This document shows positions 51,404-63,583 of a DNA stretch of 64,000 nt, in pieces. Positions within the stretch are counted from its first letter, which is position 1; every line of letters begins with the position of its first letter. The translations under genes were made by a program, and so were the position numbers. The notes under the pieces are model-generated. The model was given only the letters and a program-made list of their open reading frames with translations, did not search any database and was not told the origin of the DNA. This stretch comes from a phage: the sequence record PZ347661.1; one strand, written 5' to 3'.

Positions 51404-51910
51404 TTATTCCTGTTCAAAAAGTTTACGGTCAGCCTGAATCTGTTTACCCAACTCAATTAGTTGGCTGTCACGGAGTCTAACAGTTGCCCTGAGTTCTTCA
51501 ACCAAACGTCTGCCTTCTTCAAGACTGTTGTCGAGTCTGGCTGCATGGCTTGCAAGACTTCTGCACTCAAAGGTTCCGGCTTCGGCTTTACGTTTATATA
51601 CCGATGCTCGTCTTTCAGACTGTTGCATCCGGCTGTCGTAATCACTGCTAACGCGAGCAAGCTCGCTTGCGTAATTACTCTCAGCCGTCTGCAACCGGGA
51701 AGTGAGTAACCCGACTTCATAACTATGGTTTCTTTGGAGAGCATTGTATTTGTCCTGTAATTTTTGTGTTGCCTTTTGATCTTCAATCTTTTGGTCATCC
51801 CACTTCTTTTGAACAGTAGACTGTCCATTGGAATTACCCCAAAAGTAAATGGTGGCCCCTAGGACCACCACCAGAAGATAAGGCCAACCTTTAGAGATTA
51901 GCATCTTCAT
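51404..51910 (-). CDS. i-spanin (Rz-like)
   Basis: N-terminal TM helix [16 protein letters not shown] then long coiled-coil periplasmic domain; downstream of endolysin; contains embedded +1-frame lipoprotein ORF. Confidence 0.5.
51457..51720 (-). CDS. o-spanin (Rz1-like lipoprotein) embedded in i-spanin gene
   Basis: Signal peptide with lipobox-like ...[12 protein letters not shown], short Pro-rich mature region; wholly inside the Rz-like ORF in another frame. Confidence 0.45.
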   Translation of the reverse strand: MKSGYSLPGCRRLRVITQASLLALAVITTAGCNSLKDEHRYINVKPKPEPLSAEVLQAMQPDSTTVLKKADVWLKNSGQLLDSVTAN

Positions 51911-52526
51911 TACATGCCTCCAGTGGCACATTGCCTATTCGGTTAGCTACCCAACCATACGTAAAGTCTGGCATGTTTAATGAGGTGTAGTGGTTCAGTT
52001 GTTTGGCATCAAGTAACTTAATCATTACCTGACATGCTGCAACTTTGCCTCGTTTTTTCTGCAATGCTTTATATGCATTAACAGTACTTGTACCGACTTT
52101 ACCATCAACCTGTATTTTAGGGTAGTCTTTGCCATTGCGAGACATTTCATTAAGAGATAACTGCAACCATTTAGCAGGACGAGTTACACCAGTGTTAACA
52201 CCAGCATCTACCAGCTTGTGTGTTACAGCAGGAGATATATCAGCGAAGGCTACGAAGTTAGGCTTAAGTACGTAGTCATCAATGTATATCTCAGCAGCCA
52301 TCTCTTTAGATAAACCTTTCATAGAACCATCCCAACCATACTCAGTAGCCAGAACTTCTTTATGAGATTTAGCTACAGATTGGGTAATACCATAATTAGT
52401 TTCCCCACCTGGGTCACGAGGATTGTTTACATATCCCCCTTCCATATAGAACACTGCCCCCAGGATAGCAGCGACAACTCCTCCCACTGCACCACCTTTC
52501 GCAGCAAGTTTCTGTTTAGCTTTCAT
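51891..52526 (-). CDS. GH108-family N-acetylmuramidase endolysin with N-terminal SAR-like segment
   Basis: EGGYVNNPRDPGGETNYGIT motif of the GH108 family; Gly/Ala-rich N-terminal hydrophobic stretch GGAVGGVVAAILGAVFYM. Confidence 0.75.
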   Translation of the reverse strand: MKAKQKLAAKGGAVGGVVAAILGAVFYMEGGYVNNPRDPGGETNYGITQSVAKSHKEVLATEYGWDGSMKGLSKEMAAEIYIDDYVLKPNFVAFADISPAVTHKLVDAGVNTGVTRPAKWLQLSLNEMSRNGKDYPKIQVDGKVGTSTVNAYKALQKKRGKVAACQVMIKLLDAKQLNHYTSLNMPDFTYGWVANRIGNVPLEACNEDANL

Positions 52527-52776
52527 GTGAATCTTCCTTTGGTCGGAATCGTATTAATCTGCCTACGATGTTTAAGGCAAACAGTGCAATTGCAATATTG
52601 GAACCATGGGGAATATCTTCCAGGATGTGACGAGGTAATCCTGTCAGCATTGGTTGAATGATATCTATGGCAGAAAACATAATTAACCCAAAAGTACTAA
52701 TCTGAATGGATGCCCACTTCCAGCATCTTTTCCAATTAGGTACTAACTCAATCTTTCTTCTTAACCTGCGAACCAT
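52516..52776 (-). CDS. holin-like two-TM membrane protein
   Basis: Two hydrophobic helices (ISTFGLIMFSAIDII, IAIALFALNIVGRLI), immediately upstream of endolysin. Confidence 0.45.
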   Translation of the reverse strand: MVRRLRRKIELVPNWKRCWKWASIQISTFGLIMFSAIDIIQPMLTGLPRHILEDIPHGSNIAIALFALNIVGRLIRFRPKEDSHES

Positions 52777-53090
52777 GCGAATATCTCCCGTCTTGCAGCA
52801 GCCAATACACCAATGATTGCACCTGCCCCAGCCCACACCCACTTACCAAAAATCCCAGCACCAACAACTTTATGTTTAATGGTAATGAACTCTTCAATAG
52901 TAGGTTCATTCTTAGCTAAACTATCCTCCACGTTTTTCAGTCTATTACCTATGTCATTGATTGAATCCCGTAGCTCCACCAGAGTTTCCTCCAGTTTCTC
53001 ACGATCCTGTCTTTCTCTTGTCTGGTTCTCAAACAGAGTCTTCAATCGTTCCTCCAGCCTGACTAGGAGTAGTTCACCCGATTCATTCAT
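52761..53090 (-). CDS. membrane-anchored coiled-coil protein (holin/antiholin candidate)
   Basis: Charged helical N-terminus, C-terminal TM VVGAGIFGKWVWAGAGAIIGVLAAA; first gene of the lysis cluster. Confidence 0.4.
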   Translation of the reverse strand: MNESGELLLVRLEERLKTLFENQTRERQDREKLEETLVELRDSINDIGNRLKNVEDSLAKNEPTIEEFITIKHKVVGAGIFGKWVWAGAGAIIGVLAAARREIFAWFAG

Positions 53091-53324
53091 AATATTACCG
53101 TAGTTGTGTAGTTAGAATCCCCAATAGGGTCATATCATAAGATGACTCATAGATAATACTTAGTATGATGAGGTACATCCAGACATAGTGTCTGGTATCA
53201 ACACATGGTAGATAGCGTTCAGTTGGGTATGTTTAATATCTCAAGGCAAGTAATTACCTTAACAGCAGTATCAGTTAGGGTAATGCAAACAGTGAACTCT
53301 ATATAAAAAGTATCATTAGTAGGT

Positions 53325-53354
53325 AAAACTAACCCCGCCGAAGCGGGGTTTTTG
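53325..53354. terminator. rho-independent terminator
   Basis: AACCCCGC-cgaa-GCGGGGTT with T-runs on both sides; directly after the 699-aa tailspike gene. Confidence 0.65.
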
Positions 53355-55454
53355 TTATGGCATTCTTATGATTCCAGTTATGTTATTAGGGGTTGCTGGC
53401 AAGGCTGTACCGCTGAATGTCAACTTCAAGAGTCCACCATTATTTGACGGTGTTATAGTTAAATTAGGTGCCGTCCCGTCTAAGTAAACAGCATCGTTAT
53501 ATACGCGACCCCGCACCCGAATACCTTCAACCGTCAAGTTGATTAGAACAATCATATGCGGTCTAAAAGTAATGGCGGTATAGATAGCCCGGGTCGCAAC
53601 ACCCTCATTAATCTGAGAGCAGAACGGTATAGTTGTGGAAGCATCACCTTGGTCACCACTAAACGGCAAATCTACTTTACCGCCGGTGAAGTTCTGACGT
53701 GCAATGAAATTACCAGACCCATCAAGCGCCACAGCAGGAAATACTATTTTCTCGAAACCAGAGAATGTCCACCCAGACGGAACCCCCGGCAGAGTGTTAA
53801 CCGATACCGCAGCAGGAGGAATGTTGACCGTTAAGCCATTCAGGTTTCCAGCATCAGTATTGAATTTGGTGGTGCAGTTCAGGAAGTACGTATTCTCACC
53901 GAATACACCAGAGCTTAACTGGTTGCCGTAGAAACAAGTATTTACGTTGTTAAAGAATCCACCAATTTTAACGGCTCTATGCGCTTGCGCCGCACCCATG
54001 TCAATGGCTACATCGGTGATATCTTCGTAGTAACCGTAAATTTCCAACGGCATTACTTCCCCGGTGAATACTAGCCCTTTATCACAGCTTTCAGCGTTCA
54101 CGAATTCAAGGCGCTGCCCGTTTATAGCGCCGTCAAAACGATACGCAAGTTTGCGCTGTGTAACGTTAATGTTATGGATGTTCTGCGAGTTGATATAGGT
54201 ATCAAACAAGAACGCCGGTTGTGTATGCGTTTTTGGTGCCGTCAGGTTTCGGGAAGTCATAGTATGGAACGCACCATACCAGCTTGACTTAGCAATTAGG
54301 TTTTGAGCACAATCCACGAACGTAATAGAGTGTAATTCGCTTGCCTCTGCAAAGTTCCGTACGCTAAAACCAATCCCTGCATTTCTTACGATGAAATTTC
54401 TAATCTTGGTTCCAGTTACGCGATAAGTATTATCTGCGAGGGCCACATTGCTCTCTAACACCCCTGTTGATGGGTTAAACCCACCAGTAACAAACATAGT
54501 ATTTGTACCATTTCCGACTAGTTCAGCGCCGTTCAGGTCGATGTCTACCATGGCAGGAATGATGATGGGGGAGCTGCCGATTACGTTAAATCGACCACCC
54601 CTTGATGATACTTTGCGGATGCCTTGTTTCATAGCATCAGCGTAGACATCGCCACTTATTCCATTACCAGCAGCTTTAACTGCATCAGCAATAGCTTGTG
54701 TATTATCCGTTGCCGTTGTATATGCGCCAAAATCCTCTATATACAGGATACTGCATTCTCGAATCCAACGACCAGGACCGGATATGGCGGTTGGTTTGAT
54801 GACCACACCATTGTCATCATCCCTGGTATTCGCTGAATCCCATACAAAAATACCACCACCGCCGGATACGCCAGTGCGGTAAGCTTTAACCTGAATTCGC
54901 TGATTAGAAACACTACCGGTAACTCCGCGAAGCGCAACAATCGAATCTACGGCACCTACTAACTTAAGACCATCCTGCGCGGATAAATCAGTTCGTAATG
55001 TTGGGTCAGTCTGCGGCTTCCAGTCAGCGTTACCAACTGGGTTAGTTCCTGAGGGAATAGTTACAGGTAAAGAACCTAAGTAGGTGTAACCCATGCCATT
55101 GTGAAATAATAATTCATTTCTGGTATTTACAACTAAACCAGTAACAAACGAGTCGGACAGGCTTACGAATTCTCTACGTGTAGCAGCCAGTTCACCTAAA
55201 TCAATAGTACCAGCTGAATGAACCAGGACTGCTTGCTCACTGAGACTTACAGCAGTGGTTCCTACTGGGAGTACGGGTAATGAGTAAGCACGTTGAGTAG
55301 TCTTATCATAAATAACTTTGTAACCACCTAAGTCTACACCTACAGAAAAGTAGACTACTTCATTCTGCTTAACACCAAACTTACGGGCAATGGCCTGCTT
55401 ATTGGTAAGAATACCAGTAGAACCTCTACCACCTTGTGAGAACATCTCGTTCAT
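53355..55454 (-). CDS. tailspike / tail fiber with beta-helix (pectate-lyase-like) domain
   Basis: 699 aa; IEDFGAYTTATDNTQAIADAV resembles the N-terminal cap motif of right-handed beta-helix depolymerases. Confidence 0.55.
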   Translation of the reverse strand: MNEMFSQGGRGSTGILTNKQAIARKFGVKQNEVVYFSVGVDLGGYKVIYDKTTQRAYSLPVLPVGTTAVSLSEQAVLVHSAGTIDLGELAATRREFVSLSDSFVTGLVVNTRNELLFHNGMGYTYLGSLPVTIPSGTNPVGNADWKPQTDPTLRTDLSAQDGLKLVGAVDSIVALRGVTGSVSNQRIQVKAYRTGVSGGGGIFVWDSANTRDDDNGVVIKPTAISGPGRWIRECSILYIEDFGAYTTATDNTQAIADAVKAAGNGISGDVYADAMKQGIRKVSSRGGRFNVIGSSPIIIPAMVDIDLNGAELVGNGTNTMFVTGGFNPSTGVLESNVALADNTYRVTGTKIRNFIVRNAGIGFSVRNFAEASELHSITFVDCAQNLIAKSSWYGAFHTMTSRNLTAPKTHTQPAFLFDTYINSQNIHNINVTQRKLAYRFDGAINGQRLEFVNAESCDKGLVFTGEVMPLEIYGYYEDITDVAIDMGAAQAHRAVKIGGFFNNVNTCFYGNQLSSGVFGENTYFLNCTTKFNTDAGNLNGLTVNIPPAAVSVNTLPGVPSGWTFSGFEKIVFPAVALDGSGNFIARQNFTGGKVDLPFSGDQGDASTTIPFCSQINEGVATRAIYTAITFRPHMIVLINLTVEGIRVRGRVYNDAVYLDGTAPNLTITPSNNGGLLKLTFSGTALPATPNNITGIIRMP

Positions 55455-55476
55455 AAGTACCTCTTTGTTTTTCTGG

Positions 55477-55500
55477 AAAACCCCTCCGAAGAGGGGATAT
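55477..55500 (-). terminator. stem-loop terminator between tailspike genes
   Basis: CCCCTC-cgaa-GAGGGG with U-run on the - strand. Confidence 0.5.
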
Positions 55501-55511
55501 GTTAATTATTA

Positions 55512-58253
55512 CTACATACGCTGAATACGCCATCTACGCGTAGTGCTGGATATACCAGATTCTACATATACACCAGTGAGGGTATATAGGGTATTACCTA
55601 ATCGTGTAGCATCAGCAACTGCATGAGAGATGGTATATGCAACACTATCAGTAGCAGCATCATACCCATTGACTGTAACTGTAAATGCAGGAGTTGCCAG
55701 TAAAGTTGCACCACTACTAGCTTCGCCAATGACTTTAGTTACTAGTACGCCAGTACCCGCTGTACTAGCCTCTGGTAGCGTAATACCTATTAAATATTGT
55801 TCATTACCTTGTATATAGTTTTCAGATACTGCTTTCGTTAAAGCATTAATCTGTAGGTGCATCATACGGGGGTTGCCACTACCTGCCGGGATATAAACCT
55901 TAAATACAGCAACAGGAGAAGTAGATGCATGGTTCTTAAAGTTTACCATTGCGGGGATAATAGAGTTCCAATCCCTAACATCCATTGGGCGTGCTTCTAC
56001 ATACATAGATGCTGTGTGCATTGCACTCCCATCGTAATCCCCAGTTCTTCCATAATCTGGTGCATCCGAGAATGTACCTAAGTATCTGTATTTAGATAAG
56101 ACTATCTTAGTGCCATTACCTTGTAGTGAAACGTTGGGTGAGTTAGACCATCCGCCATTAATATAAATAGTAATATTCTTACCTAGTGAGCTGACTGTGT
56201 TTCCTAAACGGAACATGCAATCGTTACAGGTTATTACCTGGTTTACAGTCTGCCCTTCTACCAAATATGGATAAGACGAGGATTCTACATCCCCCTCGAT
56301 ATAGCAAGAATTGAGGGTAAACGTGTTTACCGATGCCATAGTAGCAAAATAAATACGAGACTGTCCTTTGGTTTCAAAAGAACACTCGTTCCACGTTAAC
56401 ACCTGAGTTGGGCAGTGCACTGATACCGCATGGGTCTGTTGCTCTGCCATCCATATATTTGAGAAGTTAACGTTGTTAACTTCCTCTGTTGGTTGATTGT
56501 AGCCAATTCGGATATGTGATCCTGTTAGCACCACAGATGAACTACTACGACGGAAACGGATATTTTGGTACACGGAATACCAACATTTATCAATATCAAT
56601 GCCGTAGTGGAAGTCTTCAAGTATTGCGTCTACAACCCCACCATTATCCGTGTTATACGTACTAGAAATGCCCCTAAGGTTGGCATTACTCGCATTCCCT
56701 TTTAAGCGTAGTGTTTCTAGACGTGCTCCAAATCCTACCAGGGTTACTAAATATCCTGAATTGGTATTATTCGAGGCGTCGATTATTGTGAATAAATCTT
56801 CCCCGCAAATAGTGGTCCCACTCGGCAGAGTGATACCCGCCCCATTGTAGATATATGTACCATGCGGTAAGTACAGTCTACGGAAGTTAGTGACTAAACT
56901 GGTTCCTGTTAATGCTGCACACGCGGCGTCGATGGCATTGGTGTCATCTGTTACACCGTCCCCTTTTGCACCCCAATCCTTAACACTTATATAATCTGCG
57001 TTGAAATCATGTTGTGTACGCATTACAGCAGTAATGTGATTAACCTTGGTGCCAATATGCCCACTACCACTTTCACTTCCTAATCGGTTTTCTAAGTCAG
57101 AAACCTGGGCACTGGGAACGGGAACCAATGCTACGGTAATATTGCCTGGATTATAAGTTAGCTGCCCATTGTTTACAGAGTCGATGTAAACGTTGGTTGG
57201 TAACGTAGGTAACCCATATGCCTTCTGTTCACTAACAGAATAAATAATCTTCTTACCATTAAGTACTTGGGAATTATCCGTACTAAGGATTACCTCAGAA
57301 TCTTTTACATTAGCAGCACGGGCAACTTCCTGAAGAGTATGGTCTGATGTTTCCAGTACCTGTGTCTCTCCGCCAATCTGAACAATCAGACGATCATTAG
57401 TTGCCAGTGGCTCAGTAAGAAGGATACGCTGGTTATCTGGGTCAGCAGTATATGACTCAGTAGTTAGTCCTTTATACAAACGAAGACCATTCTTATACAC
57501 AGCAGGAACAGACTGGAAGGTATAAGGAATAGCAATAACCTGCTCACCACCCACAGCAGCACCATTGTTGTATAACCAGTTAATCTGAACCCAGTCATTA
57601 ACGTTAGGGTTGTCTGGTACAGCAGGAACACCAGTCAGCAAGAATACAACTTCATCACCTTCTTCCAGAGGCTGAGCCAGAGTCACGGACAGATTCTCTA
57701 CGTTAAACTCAAAGCCACGACCTACATACTGCATGTCACCATTAATAATGATAAATGGTACACCTACTGTACCATCCGGTACGTTGATTGTGGTTTCCCC
57801 ACCAGTAGCAGAACCATTGCTATATACCCAAGGAATGTATGCACCCTCACCAGAGGAAGTACCACCTCCATTGGAACCGGTAGTAGCAACAGTAATCCAC
57901 GAACCAGTTGATTCTGGGTCATCTGGGATAATACCGGTACGATCACCTTCTACGTATAAGTAGTCAGTTACCTGACGGTCACCTGCACGGGAGAAGCCAT
58001 AAATACGTGCATACTTAGCTTTGGTTGTTAGAGCCTTAAGTTCTGCCTCAGACTGTACGCCAAGTACCATCCCATACTGATTCAAGAAGTCATAAATCAG
58101 TTTAAGGTTACCCAGGTTGCAGTACACAGTACGAACCACGTGGTAAGCATTACCAAGTAGTGCATCTACCATTGGGTCATTGGAACTGTTCTGGCAGTAA
58201 GGATTAGTCCAATCCTGATTTGCATCAAAGGGGGTATGTGCGTTCATCGCCAT
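55512..58253 (-). CDS. tailspike with pectate-lyase-superfamily beta-helix domain
   Basis: 913 aa; SVKDWGAKGDGVTDDTNAIDAACAAL is the classic beta-helix tailspike/depolymerase motif. Confidence 0.65.
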   Translation of the reverse strand: MAMNAHTPFDANQDWTNPYCQNSSNDPMVDALLGNAYHVVRTVYCNLGNLKLIYDFLNQYGMVLGVQSEAELKALTTKAKYARIYGFSRAGDRQVTDYLYVEGDRTGIIPDDPESTGSWITVATTGSNGGGTSSGEGAYIPWVYSNGSATGGETTINVPDGTVGVPFIIINGDMQYVGRGFEFNVENLSVTLAQPLEEGDEVVFLLTGVPAVPDNPNVNDWVQINWLYNNGAAVGGEQVIAIPYTFQSVPAVYKNGLRLYKGLTTESYTADPDNQRILLTEPLATNDRLIVQIGGETQVLETSDHTLQEVARAANVKDSEVILSTDNSQVLNGKKIIYSVSEQKAYGLPTLPTNVYIDSVNNGQLTYNPGNITVALVPVPSAQVSDLENRLGSESGSGHIGTKVNHITAVMRTQHDFNADYISVKDWGAKGDGVTDDTNAIDAACAALTGTSLVTNFRRLYLPHGTYIYNGAGITLPSGTTICGEDLFTIIDASNNTNSGYLVTLVGFGARLETLRLKGNASNANLRGISSTYNTDNGGVVDAILEDFHYGIDIDKCWYSVYQNIRFRRSSSSVVLTGSHIRIGYNQPTEEVNNVNFSNIWMAEQQTHAVSVHCPTQVLTWNECSFETKGQSRIYFATMASVNTFTLNSCYIEGDVESSSYPYLVEGQTVNQVITCNDCMFRLGNTVSSLGKNITIYINGGWSNSPNVSLQGNGTKIVLSKYRYLGTFSDAPDYGRTGDYDGSAMHTASMYVEARPMDVRDWNSIIPAMVNFKNHASTSPVAVFKVYIPAGSGNPRMMHLQINALTKAVSENYIQGNEQYLIGITLPEASTAGTGVLVTKVIGEASSGATLLATPAFTVTVNGYDAATDSVAYTISHAVADATRLGNTLYTLTGVYVESGISSTTRRWRIQRM

Positions 58254-58954
58254 CCTCGTTGTTCAAATTTAGTTTCGGTAATTGAAATACTTCCATTAGC
58301 CAGGTCGTAATCAACAACCTCACCACAGATGCTTTCATACGTTTGCAGATACTCTGCTGCTTTAGCATTAGCTTCAGGAGTATTCAAACCGGTGTGGTAA
58401 CGATAGCCCACCCAGTTATGAAGTGCCGTCATTAGCGTATCAGCTAAATCAACTTCCTGTTCTTCATCACCCGTAAGTACAGGGTGCTTAGCTTGATAAG
58501 TTACGTTAAGTGCCTCGAAGTGTCGAGGTCGCATACACTGAATAGTATCAGGCCGAGGAGTAAAAATTGCATGAGGGTCTGAATCGTCGTTAAGTCTACG
58601 TCGATTCCCTGAGTTATCAAACACATTTAGGATTTTAATAACATCATCCTGGAAAGGCTTCATGAACCCATCCATGATATATGGATATTGAATCTCAAGA
58701 GTAGGCTTAGTAAATCTGGAATAGGCATATTTGGATTGAAGGGGATAATCAGTACGACCTTCCTTCATTTCCACAATACAGCTGTTAGTCCTAAGAGGGA
58801 AACGACTATGTAGTCGTACCAGTCCCTCATTAATAGCAGCTAATATCTCAGGCTTACTCTCTGGTTCAATATCTAATCTGTCATCAGTGATTGCACCAGT
58901 ACCCTTCAGAGTACTTAGTGCCAAGCCACGATATACTTCCGATAATTTCTGCAT
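58244..58954 (-). CDS. virion / tail-associated protein (gp67-like position)
   Basis: 236-aa ORF between terminase and tailspike genes. Confidence 0.4.
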   Translation of the reverse strand: MQKLSEVYRGLALSTLKGTGAITDDRLDIEPESKPEILAAINEGLVRLHSRFPLRTNSCIVEMKEGRTDYPLQSKYAYSRFTKPTLEIQYPYIMDGFMKPFQDDVIKILNVFDNSGNRRRLNDDSDPHAIFTPRPDTIQCMRPRHFEALNVTYQAKHPVLTGDEEQEVDLADTLMTALHNWVGYRYHTGLNTPEANAKAAEYLQTYESICGEVVDYDLANGSISITETKFEQRGWR

Positions 58955-58960
58955 GGTTCC

Positions 58961-60550
58961 TCACACAATATATGAACGTAGTGGGTTAACACTATCTTCT
59001 TCTTCGTCATCCCACATTGGGTCGCCTTTGTTATCCACCATAGTCATACCTGCTTGTGGTTTCCAAGGATTGAGATAACCCAGCATGGAGATAGTATCAA
59101 TACAGTCATCCTTGCCTTTAATTCCATTAATGGTAGCTAGTTTAATCTGGCCCATGAACAGACCCATAATAGTTGAATCTCTCAACTCTTCCGGGAAGTA
59201 CATTTTACCAGCCTTGAACCATGGAACTACCAGGTTAAAGCGTGACAGCTTAGAGGTTACAGGACGTATGCCTGGCTTACCACCCTCAGAGGATGCAAAG
59301 TTAAAGAAGACATTACGGTTAATCATTTCTTTCTGAAGGAGTGAGATGAATCCATTCTGCTGTCCTGTGATTTCGACCCCAACGTTTTGCGGTTGGTATT
59401 CCTGAACCAGACGGAACAGGTCGTCAAAGTTTTTATCCATAAGCTGACGATTAGCCACACCATCAACCCAGAACCAATCTCCATTAGAACTATAAGCCCA
59501 AACTGATATGACACTGTAGTCACTGGTCTGTTTCTCCGATGTAGCAAAGTCGGTTGTAATATAATAGTTGTAGCAAGACTTCATCCTTAACAGCTGCTGT
59601 CTGCTATACCATCTTATTTCACTATCCTGAACCAGTCTCTCATCCTCAGAACTAATACGAAGCATTAGTTCCTGGTAGAAGCCAGCCAACTTACCAGTCT
59701 TAACTGCCATGTCATATTGGGCTTTGATGTAGTCATAAGAGAAACGGTCATCCCATGCACCCTGAAATTCTTCTCTGCTACAAGGGAACTTCTCACACAC
59801 AGGCCATACGTTGACATCCCATGCACCAGACTCAACAGCTTCAATGATAATGTCTTCCTTATTAAAGGGAGTACCATTGAAGATTACTTTACGACGAGTA
59901 GGGTCAAGAGCATGGTTCACACCTTTATAGACAGTATCTTTAATAGCTTCCATACTCGTCTTGGAGTTAGCATCACCATCACTAATCAAGTCATCCAGTA
60001 CACAGAGTGTTGGACGTTTACCATATATCTTTGTACCACGAAGACCTGTCTTAGCACCAAACAGCTTAACACCAAGTCGATGTCCTTCTACATTACGAAA
60101 CTCTAATAGGTTATCCGTAAAGGTAGCTTCAGGTATCCATTGCTGGAGGAACTCACTATTCTTGTAACGGAACTCAATGTTCTTACGTGCAGACTTAGCA
60201 CCGTTATCCATTGAGTCAGATACGTAAATCATTCCTTCTACTTTACCCAGGCTAGGTAAGTGACCAAACACTGCCAGGAACAAAGTAAAGTATTCCATGA
60301 ACACAGCAGTCTTGCCTGCACCACGGAAGCACAGGTTAACCACATACTGGTTCGGGCTAATCATCTTATCCAGCATCTTCAAGTGAACTGGAGGTGTTTT
60401 GTTGGATTCACCCTCTTTGCCATTAACCAACTTAATAAAGTTGGCAAAGGTAAGAGCAAACTGACTAGGAACATAGTTAGAAGAATTAAGGTGGGAGTAA
60501 TCCACCTGGTCTAGCCATTCATCCAGTTCCTGTTTAATTAACTCAGACAT
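58961..60550 (-). CDS. terminase large subunit
   Basis: Walker A CFRGAGKT, Walker B LCVLDD, nuclease-domain motifs ITTDFATS and DDCIDT; ATG 60550 overlaps upstream stop. Confidence 0.8.
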   Translation of the reverse strand: MSELIKQELDEWLDQVDYSHLNSSNYVPSQFALTFANFIKLVNGKEGESNKTPPVHLKMLDKMISPNQYVVNLCFRGAGKTAVFMEYFTLFLAVFGHLPSLGKVEGMIYVSDSMDNGAKSARKNIEFRYKNSEFLQQWIPEATFTDNLLEFRNVEGHRLGVKLFGAKTGLRGTKIYGKRPTLCVLDDLISDGDANSKTSMEAIKDTVYKGVNHALDPTRRKVIFNGTPFNKEDIIIEAVESGAWDVNVWPVCEKFPCSREEFQGAWDDRFSYDYIKAQYDMAVKTGKLAGFYQELMLRISSEDERLVQDSEIRWYSRQQLLRMKSCYNYYITTDFATSEKQTSDYSVISVWAYSSNGDWFWVDGVANRQLMDKNFDDLFRLVQEYQPQNVGVEITGQQNGFISLLQKEMINRNVFFNFASSEGGKPGIRPVTSKLSRFNLVVPWFKAGKMYFPEELRDSTIMGLFMGQIKLATINGIKGKDDCIDTISMLGYLNPWKPQAGMTMVDNKGDPMWDDEEEDSVNPLRSYIV

Positions 60551-61232
60551 CTGTAATGTCCTCATCTGCACGTACTAGTTTAGAACCAGCAACCTCTTTG
60601 GTAGGTACACCACTATTGATTGCATTAATTTGCTGCTCAGCCAATGCAGCGAGTGTTGCCTTGAGGTCGGTTAATCCAGAGTTCTCTCTCAAGTCCAGAT
60701 TGATATTTGTTACCTGGTCCTTTGGTTTAGCTAAGTGAGTAAGGATAGAGTTAGCTGCATCACATCTTACCTTCTCGCTTGCTGCCGAAGTCATCAGTTC
60801 AACCTGAACATTGATTGCCTTCTGATAGTTGTCCTGGTTCACAATCCACACTGGAACCAAACTTTGTTCCATGATGAGGTTAACTAACTTACCTCTGTGG
60901 TAAGCAGATACATAAGCACTAATATCTTTCTCACTGGTTCCTCGTGCAACAAGTTCTGCTTGTCGGTTAGGGAATGTTTTAAAGTAGGCTTCCTTATTTG
61001 AGTAACCCATATGTTTGTAAGTCACATACTGAACTGCATTCATGTAGTCCTGTGTCTTAAACTTACCTTCCTTCATTACACCAGAGTAGGAGATAAAGTT
61101 TTCACGAAAGGACTCAGCAACCAGTTGGTCTTGGGTTATGTTGTTAATCGTGTCTACCAATTCCTGGGTAACACTGTTTTTGAAGTTAGCAGGTAAGGCA
61201 TTAATAATCTGCTGCTTAGTTAGTTCACTCAT
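60543..61232 (-). CDS. terminase small subunit-like protein (putative)
   Basis: 229-aa ORF immediately upstream of and overlapping the large terminase; first gene of the late strand block. Confidence 0.4.
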   Translation of the reverse strand: MSELTKQQIINALPANFKNSVTQELVDTINNITQDQLVAESFRENFISYSGVMKEGKFKTQDYMNAVQYVTYKHMGYSNKEAYFKTFPNRQAELVARGTSEKDISAYVSAYHRGKLVNLIMEQSLVPVWIVNQDNYQKAINVQVELMTSAASEKVRCDAANSILTHLAKPKDQVTNINLDLRENSGLTDLKATLAALAEQQINAINSGVPTKEVAGSKLVRADEDITDV

Positions 61233-61403: not shown

Positions 61404-61694
61404 TTGAGAATCTATATGAAAGTCTCAGACTCTAAAGATGAATACAAGGAGCTAGACCACACTAAGGCTGGTTTTCTTTCAGGTGATGTCATTATTACCC
61501 ATAATGAAGATACCTACCATGAATTAGCTGGGATGATGCTTTTAGAGAATCGTCCGGGCATTAAAATCTTAGAACCAAGAGAAACTTACTCTTTAGAAAA
61601 ACGCCCTTCAGCTCTTGTGTTCTTCACAAAATTACCTCATAGTGTCTCCGTCAGGCGAAGCAAAGACAGTGTTCGGATGACGGTGACGATGTGA
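61404..61694 (+). CDS. small protein, paralog family member A
   Basis: TTG start after AAGGAG; motif VIITHNEDTYHELAGMMLLENRPGIKILEP shared with neighbours. Confidence 0.4.
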   Translation: MRIYMKVSDSKDEYKELDHTKAGFLSGDVIITHNEDTYHELAGMMLLENRPGIKILEPRETYSLEKRPSALVFFTKLPHSVSVRRSKDSVRMTVTM

Positions 61695-61894
61695 TTAGTC
61701 ATGCCGCCTAGTAGACAGTGGCGGTACTCGTAAAGAGTTAATAACTTCTACAGTCAGGGTTGCCCGGCTCCTTTCCTACCTAGTAGGCTAACGATACACA
61801 TGTATCTAGGGTGATGAACTGACCCGTGATTGAAAACGGTAAGGGGTAGAGTCGAGAGGCTCTACCCCATTTCTTTTTCAGGAGGTATGCAACT

Positions 61895-62290
61895 ATGAGC
61901 ATCTACGCTTTTGATATTGATATTACCGGTGTACTTCGTAAGCAGGAACCCTACTACCTTGGGGAACCAGAGATGGTTAGTAAGTTCTTGTCTAAACATG
62001 TAGTCTTCCTACCAGACTGTGAAGAATCTCATGAGATAGTTGGTTCATTTTTCCTAAGTAACCTACAAATAAATACACGTATACTTACTGAACCAGTTGT
62101 GTATGACCTTACTGAGTATGCAGACTTCGAAACATTCTTCCCAGGAGTCAGATTCTATAAAGTACCCGGCTGGGAAATGATAGCTGACCATAACGTCTTT
62201 AATAAAACACTTTCCATTTACTTCAGACCTATTCCTAAAGGAAGGAAAATCCATCATGAAATTCATAATGACCATCCCCAGTTTTGCTGA
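61895..62290 (+). CDS. small protein, paralog family member B
   Basis: Motif VVFLPDCEESHEIVGSFFLSN...RILTEP. Confidence 0.4.
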   Translation: MSIYAFDIDITGVLRKQEPYYLGEPEMVSKFLSKHVVFLPDCEESHEIVGSFFLSNLQINTRILTEPVVYDLTEYADFETFFPGVRFYKVPGWEMIADHNVFNKTLSIYFRPIPKGRKIHHEIHNDHPQFC

Positions 62291-62570
62291 AAGGGAATCT
62301 ATGTATACAACTGACTTCACTTTAGAAGAAGTCATGAACAGCAACCCCCAGCAAGTAATCCTGGTTCCTACTTTAGAGGACTACCATGAGGTAAGGGGTC
62401 AACTCTTCTTAGCAGGTAATGACCGTAAGGTTGTATGTATTGTTCCTCCATCTGTCTATACCAACTTTAACTCCGGGGAACCTATCCCATACATGATGGT
62501 GTCTGATGATTACCAATGGGATTGTCGCTATGAGGATGGTGAATCCCGTTACTACTATGTAAGGAAGTAA
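62256..62570 (+). CDS. small protein, paralog family member C
   Basis: Motif VILVPTLEDYHEVRGQLFLAGNDRKVVCIVPP; start overlaps upstream gene. Confidence 0.4.
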   Translation: MKFIMTIPSFAERESMYTTDFTLEEVMNSNPQQVILVPTLEDYHEVRGQLFLAGNDRKVVCIVPPSVYTNFNSGEPIPYMMVSDDYQWDCRYEDGESRYYYVRK

Positions 62571-62573
62571 GGT

Positions 62574-62891
62574 ATGCGCTTCTATGGTTTGAGTTATCGT
62601 AGTACCAGTCCCCTTAATCTGGGGGTAGGTAAATCTCACTGGATTAGAATAAGCACGCCTATGACCATGTACTACGAACAATGCGAAAAAGCAGATGAGT
62701 TCATCGGAACTTGTCTCTTGTTGGGTGTACCCATTACCTTTATTAAAATAGACACTTCCATTGAAGTTCCAGAGAATGTAGTTGTGTATATCTATTCCTC
62801 CAGTGAACCTATGGTAGTTACTACCCTTACAGGTAGACTTATTACCCTCTATCCTTCTACCTCATATTTATCTAGCGACGAGAGCTATTAA
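62574..62891 (+). CDS. small protein, possible divergent paralog D
   Basis: Weaker resemblance (EFIGTCLLLG...IEVPE); 105 aa. Confidence 0.35.
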   Translation: MRFYGLSYRSTSPLNLGVGKSHWIRISTPMTMYYEQCEKADEFIGTCLLLGVPITFIKIDTSIEVPENVVVYIYSSSEPMVVTTLTGRLITLYPSTSYLSSDESY

Positions 62892-63175
62892 TGGTTATCA
62901 GTAAAATTTATTCAGAGCTACCATGGGATGAATACACCCACCATAAAAAAGTAGCTAACCTAGATGCTGATGTACTTATCCTGGTTCCAGACGAGCAGTC
63001 CTTGCATGAACTACAGGGATTGCTTTTCTTATACAATAAGAAAGCAGAAGTACATCTACTTGAACCAGGAACACCTATGTCCTGGCAGGGTAGCTTTAGT
63101 CCTTGGCATCTTAATACAGACAAGTACATTCTATCCTTCGAGGACAACACCCCAATCTATAAGGAAAGGTACTGA
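62891..63175 (+). CDS. small protein, paralog family member E
   Basis: Motif VLILVPDEQSLHELQGLLFLYNKKAEVHLLEP. Confidence 0.4.
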   Translation: MVISKIYSELPWDEYTHHKKVANLDADVLILVPDEQSLHELQGLLFLYNKKAEVHLLEPGTPMSWQGSFSPWHLNTDKYILSFEDNTPIYKERY

Positions 63176-63178
63176 AGT

Positions 63179-63583
63179 ATGAACGTTAAACTCTTAGGGA
63201 TGAAAGGTACAGACTTACTGCACTATTCCTCTGAACCAGAGAAAGCCATCATCCATGCTATGTCCTATGGGGATTCTACGCTAATAATGGAACCAGGGGA
63301 GTTAGCAGATTTTGCACAGGGGCATAGACTTCTCACTAACAGCAAAGCAAAGATAGTTACCCTCAATGAAGGAGATACTTACCTTGCACCAGAAGGGGAT
63401 TACTTCCATATCTTCCTACCGGTAACAGTAAAAACCAGTATGGTAAGAGAAGGTAACTCTTTCAGGTCTATAAGAATACTTGAGTCTAGAAAGATATTTC
63501 CTTGGGATATTAATTTGTCACAACCTTGGGACGTAAACACAGGTGATTATAGTATGCCCTTTGGTATCACAGATAGCTACTAA
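63179..63583 (+). CDS. small protein, possible divergent paralog F
   Basis: 134 aa; weak similarity (LIMEPGELADFAQGHRLL...KIVTLNEG). Confidence 0.35.
   Translation: MNVKLLGMKGTDLLHYSSEPEKAIIHAMSYGDSTLIMEPGELADFAQGHRLLTNSKAKIVTLNEGDTYLAPEGDYFHIFLPVTVKTSMVREGNSFRSIRILESRKIFPWDINLSQPWDVNTGDYSMPFGITDSY

Follow-up and report, generated by a model that had tools for sequence, protein, structure and literature searches.

Organization of the tailspike locus

The window analyzed in this study is a 64,000-nucleotide (nt) stretch of phage DNA (sequence record PZ347661.1), and the locus described here comprises two tailspike genes arranged in tandem on its minus strand. The two open reading frames (ORFs) span 53355..55454 (699 amino acids, aa) and 55512..58253 (913 aa), as reported by the original prediction, which had been made from the sequence alone. 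The region is very probably the adsorption locus of a G7C-like podophage of the N4 family, with a gp66-type spike that is anchored, a gp63.1-type spike that is docked, and two swapped beta-helix heads.

The original prediction had assigned a depolymerase-type motif to each protein, and both motifs were found. The DFGA-type motif lies in EDFGAYTTATDNTQAI, which occupies residues 240-255 (nt 54690-54737) in the 699-aa protein; the cap motif DFGA itself maps to 54723-54734 on the minus strand. The DWGAKGDG-type motif lies in DWGAKGDGVTDDTNAI, which spans residues 426-441 (nt 56931-56978) in the 913-aa protein, with the cap motif at 56955-56978 on the same strand. The pattern D[FW]GA occurred just twice in the six-frame translation of the whole window, once in each spike gene. 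The remaining sequences are divergent, as had been claimed: no similarity between the two proteins was detectable outside one 45-residue stretch, in which residues 20-63 of the 699-aa protein align with residues 308-352 of the 913-aa protein at 42% identity.

The DNA segment 28001-53000 of the window showed 94.7% identity to Escherichia phage vB_EcoP-ZQ2 (98% of the length covered) and 94.4% identity to St11Ph5. Both belong to Gamaleyavirus, the G7C-like genus of Schitoviridae (N4 family), and by this DNA identity the phage of the window is a Gamaleyavirus. Across the segment 53000-59000, no deposited phage covered more than 45% of the length, and similarity was confined to the 5′ parts of both spike genes and the flanks. 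The comparison with the N4-like phage G7C that had been suggested at the outset proved to be the right one.

The primary tailspike: putative anchor and branching region

The primary tailspike gene (55512..58253, minus strand) was annotated as gp66-type. It is placed between the gp67 adaptor gene and the gp63.1-type gene, as in G7C, and its start is overlapped by the stop of the gp67-type gene. Its protein matched PHROG 12242 'tail protein' (E 2e-287), and the PHROG matches fell in two stretches. The longest ORF encodes 913 aa, of which the real product probably comprises 911 aa from a likely start at 58247, the ORF start lying two codons too early (58244-58253). This assignment follows from the spacing of the ribosome-binding site (RBS), since the GAGG touches the first ATG but lies 6 nt ahead of the second (58247); from the second ATG, which overlaps the gp67-like stop codon in the sequence ATGA; from the start of G7C gp66, which aligns to residue 3 (Met3) of the ORF; and from the homologue P0025, which is 98% identical and 911 aa long.

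Residues 3-377 of the 913-aa protein share 76% identity with residues 1-375 of G7C gp66, and the similarity ends there. Residues 1-403 matched the solved structures of Moo19 gp82 (PDB 9d80, E 1e-156) and B2 gp49 (9d83, E 6e-142). The N-terminal residues 3-79 (58017..58247, minus strand) were annotated as a putative virion-anchor domain on the basis of a phmmer match to residues 1-73 of the N4 '60 kDa protein' (9lc0/9yf4, E 3e-5). In the cryo-electron microscopy structure of the N4 tail, residues ~1-80 of gp66 are what is seen of the appendage trimer on the tail (PMC13434306). Given this match and this structure, we interpret the first ~80 residues of the 913-aa protein as the probable virion anchor.

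The branching region follows at residues ~91-377 (57123..57983, minus strand) and is predicted to contain two T4 gp10-like XD domains and a TSP-head-like domain; the region is the presumed docking site of the second spike. Residues 91-210 matched the CBA120 TSP4-N assembly fragment (7rej, E 5e-14), and residues 139-415 matched TSP2 (6w4q, E 6.5e-31). Judged by such matches, XD2 and XD3 domains follow the anchor in the 913-aa protein.

The secondary tailspike: putative docking domain

The secondary tailspike gene (53355..55454, minus strand, 699 aa) was annotated as gp63.1-type, with matches to PHROG tail spike families at E 6e-84 to 1e-54. Its homologues carry PF18668 and PF27114 Phage_tail_beta. 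Residues 1-158 (54981..55454, minus strand) were assigned by homology to the N-terminal docking domain of the G7C gp63.1/CBA120 TSP1 type. These residues are 60% identical to residues 1-164 of G7C gp63.1, and past residue 158 the two proteins are unrelated. Residues 1-157/167 matched the structures of G7C gp63.1 (PDB 4qnl, E 1.5e-54) and CBA120 TSP1 (4oj5, E 1.8e-54), and the N-terminal stretch also matched B2 gp48 (9d84, E 1e-53) and CBA120 TSP3 and TSP4. The 699-aa protein showed nothing corresponding to the tail anchor at residues 3-79 of the 913-aa protein.

The original prediction had suggested a branched receptor-binding apparatus, and the N-terminal homology to G7C gp66 and gp63.1 supports this by analogy. 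We infer that the two spikes branch physically in the phage of the window, and the case is strong because an anchor segment is missing from the 699-aa protein. Alternatively, each spike might be attached to a separate tail site, with no branching between them. Two separately anchored receptor-binding proteins do exist in some podophages, and the spike-spike interaction proposed here is drawn from homology. Such an arrangement is nevertheless very improbable, since the 699-aa protein begins not with an anchor but with a gp63.1/TSP1-type domain. According to the account given in PMC8825819, this type of domain binds XD3 of gp66 in G7C. In B2 it co-purifies with its partner (gp48/gp49; PMC11654681), and both B2 proteins have matches among the proteins of the window.

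Predicted structure of the C-terminal heads

The head of the gp66-type spike (residues 385-913; 55515..57101, minus strand) and the head of the secondary spike (residues 159-699; 53358..54980, minus strand) are presumed depolymerases, each predicted to consist of a right-handed beta-helix followed by a C-terminal beta-sandwich. Each head was aligned with its relatives (alignment A1, 24 sequences; A2, 38 sequences), and the structure was then predicted with AlphaFold2. The mean predicted local distance difference test (pLDDT) score was 84.0 for the 699-aa head and 83.7 for the 913-aa head. Both models showed a long run of short beta-strands and then a beta-sandwich, and the best structural matches of both were right-handed parallel beta-helix tailspike depolymerases. 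For the 913-aa head, Foldseek gave E values of 1e-9 to 1e-7 against Acinetobacter, Klebsiella and Sf6 tailspikes. Residues 421-631 of the same protein matched Pfam PF12708 with 47.6 bits (cut-off 27, E 2.3e-12), the family of the pectate-lyase-like beta-helix of rhamnogalacturonase A and GH55. The models and their structural matches thus support parallel beta-helices in both heads, and the fold predicted for the two proteins was recovered in each of them.

An esterase like that of G7C gp63.1 was considered for the 699-aa protein and ruled out, because there is no homology past residue 158 and the model is a beta-helix.

Many acidic residues in both helices were conserved in at least 95% of homologues. 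In the 699-aa protein these are D306, E311, E370, D381, D441, E450, E455, E466 and E477, and in the 913-aa protein E485, D553, D555, E591, E604, E627, E653 and E666. Such conservation is compatible with catalysis.

Proposed adsorption apparatus

We propose the following arrangement. The first ~80 residues of the primary spike would anchor its trimer to the tail, residues ~90-380 would form the conserved branching region with its T4 gp10-like XD domains, and residues ~385-913 would be an exchangeable beta-helix head. In the secondary spike, the first ~158 residues would bind the branching region of its partner, and residues ~159-699 would form another beta-helix head, unrelated to the first. 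Every appendage of the virion would bear two different polysaccharide-recognizing heads. Each head would most likely cleave a different O-antigen or capsule, which would let the phage get past the surface glycans of one or two types of host. We likewise infer the enzymatic activity and the substrates of both heads, as well as the role of the hairpin described below.

Several points weigh against this arrangement. The conserved acidic residues could not be mapped to known active sites, the structural matches having 10-17% identity. The structure models are of single chains, not of the trimer or the gp66/gp63.1 interface. The case for both proteins is built on sequence and predicted structure. 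On the 699-aa protein, Pfam PF18668 scored below its threshold (16.8 against 25 bits), though the sequence matches to PDB entries were strong. No published activity or receptor was found for G7C gp66, and the authors of the Moo19 study call the function of their gp66-like protein unclear (PMC11654681). For these last two reasons, a second active specificity is not guaranteed.

One head, most plausibly that of the gp66-type spike, could be a non-catalytic adhesin or a vestigial structural scaffold, and the phage would then have one working specificity only. We consider this unlikely. The 913-aa head scored above the Pfam threshold for PF12708, a family of the glycosidase/lyase type, and its closest structural matches are active depolymerases. 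Many of its acidic residues are conserved across 34 homologues, down to 48% identity. Moreover, this type of head is the sole spike of P22-like prophage tailspikes (PF09008 and PF12708), where it must function. The arrangement with two enzymatic heads is the one we retain.

Under it, the two largest 'tail' ORFs receive the roles of an anchor-and-branch spike and a docked spike, which would be of use mainly for annotation and host-range prediction. It also bears on the choice or engineering of phages against particular O- or K-antigen types.

Intergenic and downstream hairpins

A hairpin lies between the two spike genes (55477..55496, minus strand; the stem-loop itself is 55496..55481). It has the form CCCCTC-UUCG-GAGGGG followed by UUUU, and it bounds the swapped module. 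The hairpin begins 15 nt past the TAG of the 913-aa gene and is followed by UUUUCC, the conserved block AGAAAAACAAAGAGGT and the start codon (ATG) of the 699-aa gene. The RBS of the latter gene, AAAGAGG (55460..55466, minus strand), is within this block. The stem has 6 bp (5 G-C pairs), the loop is UUCG, and the folding energy is -11.4 kcal/mol, which is no better than that of shuffled sequence (z = -0.48).

The hairpin was present at the same place in 12/12 entries (11 distinct, G7C being counted twice). The viral contig collection was searched by the pattern of the RBS and start codon only, which is blind to the hairpin, and the 70 nt upstream were then inspected. The stems vary among CCCCTC/GAGGGG, CCCCGC/GCGGGG and GCCCCTC/GAGGGGC with the pairing kept, and the ECBP1-type locus L005 has a wholly different stem, AAAGGTCAC/GTGACCTTT. 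These compensatory changes are good evidence for a selected structure.

The original prediction had named this element a stem-loop terminator. The stem-loop was confirmed and is conserved; the terminator part is only suggested by its sequence. The terminator scan made no call on it, finding just four T where the criterion is 5 T in 8. The U-tract is UUUU followed by CC, and in relatives it is UUUC, UUUA or AUUUUUUU. The stem-loop between genes 63.1 and 66 of G7C-like phages has been described as terminator-like and as a limit of recombination exchanges in g66 (bioRxiv 10.1101/542787), and the intergenic hairpin of the window may likewise act as a transcription terminator.

The intergenic hairpin could also be mainly a 3′ messenger RNA-stabilizing structure, or a recombination boundary that favors the exchange of heads. 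We give this possibility serious weight, at somewhat under even odds. It agrees with the short run of four U, the silence of the consensus scan and the folding energy, which is no better than that of shuffles. The 699-aa gene has a strong RBS of its own and begins 26 nt farther on, and full termination at this point would be counter-productive because the downstream gene is needed together with the upstream one. A boundary is further suggested by the homology between gp66 alleles, which stops at the hairpin, by the presence of the hairpin-RBS-start block in ~150-kb phage contigs, and by the role in recombination that the authors of bioRxiv 10.1101/542787 proposed. The free variation of the stem with pairing kept (entirely different in L005) nevertheless points to selection on RNA or DNA structure and not on a nuclease recognition sequence. 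The similar hairpin past the second gene also behaves as an ordinary terminator (z = -3.06) and is so annotated in one record.

This second hairpin, AACCCCGC-UUCG-GCGGGGUU (53331..53350, minus strand), was identified by the terminator scan just past the stop of the 699-aa gene. It is terminator-like, and with -15.6 kcal/mol (z = -3.06) it is stronger than the intergenic one. As a 35-bp element, it occurs in more than 100 other phage records. The matches of the hairpin (AAAAACCCCGCTTCGGCGGGGTTAG; 53325-53360), in many unrelated phage records, are 30-36 bp long with 97-100% identity. The search that contained the downstream hairpin found 152 records, 110 of them from Salmonella phages, and one phage record labels the element 'terminator', adjoining a tail fibre gene. 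In the first search, 108 Salmonella-phage matches (95-99%) had appeared as a candidate shared module; they are explained by the 30-36 bp of this downstream terminator hairpin.

Relatives and exchange of the heads

The DNA search of deposited phages gave no match to the 699-aa head. For the 913-aa head it gave one, Klebsiella phage vB_kpnM_D1, with 88% identity over about half the length of the head, and the corresponding ORF showed 78% aa identity. The best phage protein match of the 699-aa head was a tail fibre of an Iodobacter phage (29% identity), and no protein of Escherichia N4-like phages matched this head at E ≤ 1e-5. In a large protein collection, proteins 90-94% identical to the 699-aa head came from metagenome-derived assemblies, and relatives with 63-73% identity included proteins of Enterobacter asburiae and an E. 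coli tailspike. The same collection contained one other assembly with a 98%-identical relative of the 913-aa head. Relatives of this head with 52-77% identity came from E. albertii (77%, a prophage tailspike), Enterobacter hormaechei and Cronobacter, and they are probably all prophage tailspikes.

The relatives of the 913-aa and 699-aa heads sit behind differing anchors, namely PF18668 of the TSP1 type and PF09008 of the P22 head-binding type. Like heads behind unlike N-terminal anchors are the usual mark of tailspike modularity. Prophage tailspikes were also sought in 5,426 complete E. coli genomes as a guide to the target O-serotype, and neither head was matched, so that no receptor is proposed.

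Two contigs showed other pairings. The 68-kb Gamaleyavirus contig L004 encodes a 704-aa spike whose head is 93% identical to that of the 699-aa protein. In this contig (2582-5638), the 699-type head is paired with a different gp66 allele of 1018 aa. Contig L003 carries the 98%-identical 911-aa gp66 allele with an identical stop-to-hairpin stretch, and the 5′ end of its gp63.1 gene is slightly different. As these pairings show, the two heads are exchanged separately, and the present pair was not found together in any sequence examined. We propose that the heads were gained by modular recombination, in which the breakpoints would be the ends of the conserved N-terminal parts and the hairpins just past each stop codon.

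The region of the hairpin, the RBS and the first ~500 nt of the secondary spike gene (54950-55520) also showed 85-89% DNA identity to the ~150-kb E. coli phages A221, RPN242 and PC3. The hairpin-RBS-start block was likewise seen in viral contigs of 149-157 kb (loci L006 and L011).

On DNA similarity, N4-family podophages share the docking-domain cassette with large phages that are, by size, Ackermannviridae-like. A bolder reading is that the block of hairpin, RBS and docking start is a portable cassette boundary of N4-family podophages and ~150-kb Ackermannviridae-like phages, and that the hairpins actively promote head recombination between phage families and underlie a cross-genus dual host range. 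We regard this as speculative and quite unlikely. Recombination of this kind would have given the phage of the window its pair of heads, whose closest named or annotated relatives come from elements of Klebsiella, Enterobacter, Cronobacter and E. albertii.

Neighboring genes

The order terminase, gp67, gp66, gp63.1, gp63, holin, muramidase and spanins is shared with the annotated records of G7C and ZQ2. The terminase large-subunit gene (58961..60571) and the gp67-type tail adaptor gene (58244..58954, minus strand, 236 aa) lie upstream of both spike genes. The adaptor was assigned by PHROG 2125 (E 9e-92) and by synteny with G7C gp67, and its Pfam SU10_adaptor score of 27.0 bits is exactly the cut-off value.

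The lysis cassette (51404..53090) is downstream of both spike genes. At the spanin locus (51404-51931), an ORF of 123 aa (51457..51828) is nested in another frame of an ORF of 175 aa (51404..51931), and this pair matches the Rz/Rz1-like gp60/gp60' annotated in G7C. A non-coding stretch of 264 nt (53091-53354) separates the 699-aa gene from the gp63-like gene. Compared with contig L004, only 2/291 positions differed here, though the adjoining spike is only ~93% identical in protein. This stretch may hold a promoter or another regulatory element.

At 61404-63583 on the plus strand, at least 6 small ORFs of 94-134 aa form a tandem array. The motif E(D/E)xxHE(L/V)xGxxFL recurs in 5 of them (61404, 61895, 62256, 62891 and 63179) and is absent from the ORF at 62574. 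From this motif, the array looks like a paralogous family. It sits where G7C has gp70 to gp71.2, which are annotated there as hypothetical.

Comparison with known systems

G7C is the closest described system. Its gp66 and gp63.1 assemble stably into a complex with two branches, in which binding depends on XD3 of gp66 (Prokhorov et al. 2017, Mol Microbiol 105:385, as cited in PMC8825819). The phage of the window shares with G7C the genome backbone at genus level, the gene order and the hairpin between the spike genes, together with the anchor and branching part of gp66 (76% identical) and the docking domain of gp63.1 (60% identical). In contrast, neither C-terminal head is related to its G7C counterpart. 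The gp63.1 of G7C is an O-antigen deacetylase (SGNH esterase), whereas the 699-aa protein has a predicted beta-helix head of the depolymerase type.

Conserved N-termini with unrelated, swapped C-termini from prophage-like sources have been described in G7C-like phages (bioRxiv 10.1101/542787). In one of these phages, Alt63, the gp63.1 esterase is replaced by the O-antigen depolymerase gp63.1A (bioRxiv 10.1101/542787, PMC10743462). Like the 699-aa protein, gp63.1A combines the conserved gp63.1 N-terminus with a classical depolymerase head, and the allelic swap is bounded by the stem-loop. The 699-aa head appears to be another allele, as judged from the search of Escherichia N4-like phages and not from a direct comparison with Alt63.

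The Shigella phages Moo19 (gp82, 9d80) and B2 (gp48/gp49, 9d83/9d84) provide the solved structures that come nearest to the conserved N-terminal parts. B2 gp48 and gp49 co-purify as a two-protein spike complex (PMC11654681). The heads of these phages have esterase activity (PMC11654681), whereas those of the window are predicted beta-helices, and B2 gp49 is a stem of 410 aa only, without a head of its own. The branched complex of TSP1-TSP4 in the Kuttervirus CBA120 differs in that it comprises four spikes on the baseplate of a myovirus, whereas the phage of the window would carry two on a podovirus tail, with an anchor domain of the N4 gp66 type.

For G7C-like phages, the literature already contains the branched gp66/gp63.1 complex, the exchange of C-termini, the replacement of an esterase by a depolymerase (Alt63) and the stem-loop between the spike genes. 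The arrangement itself is not new, being the adsorption locus that defines the genus. Because the branched system, head swapping and stem-loop were known, the view of adsorption in N4-family phages is unchanged. What sets the window apart, as far as sequence comparison goes, is the combination of these two heads: phage matches of the 699-aa head reach 29% identity at most, and the 913-aa head is shared with one 78%-identical ORF of a Klebsiella phage.

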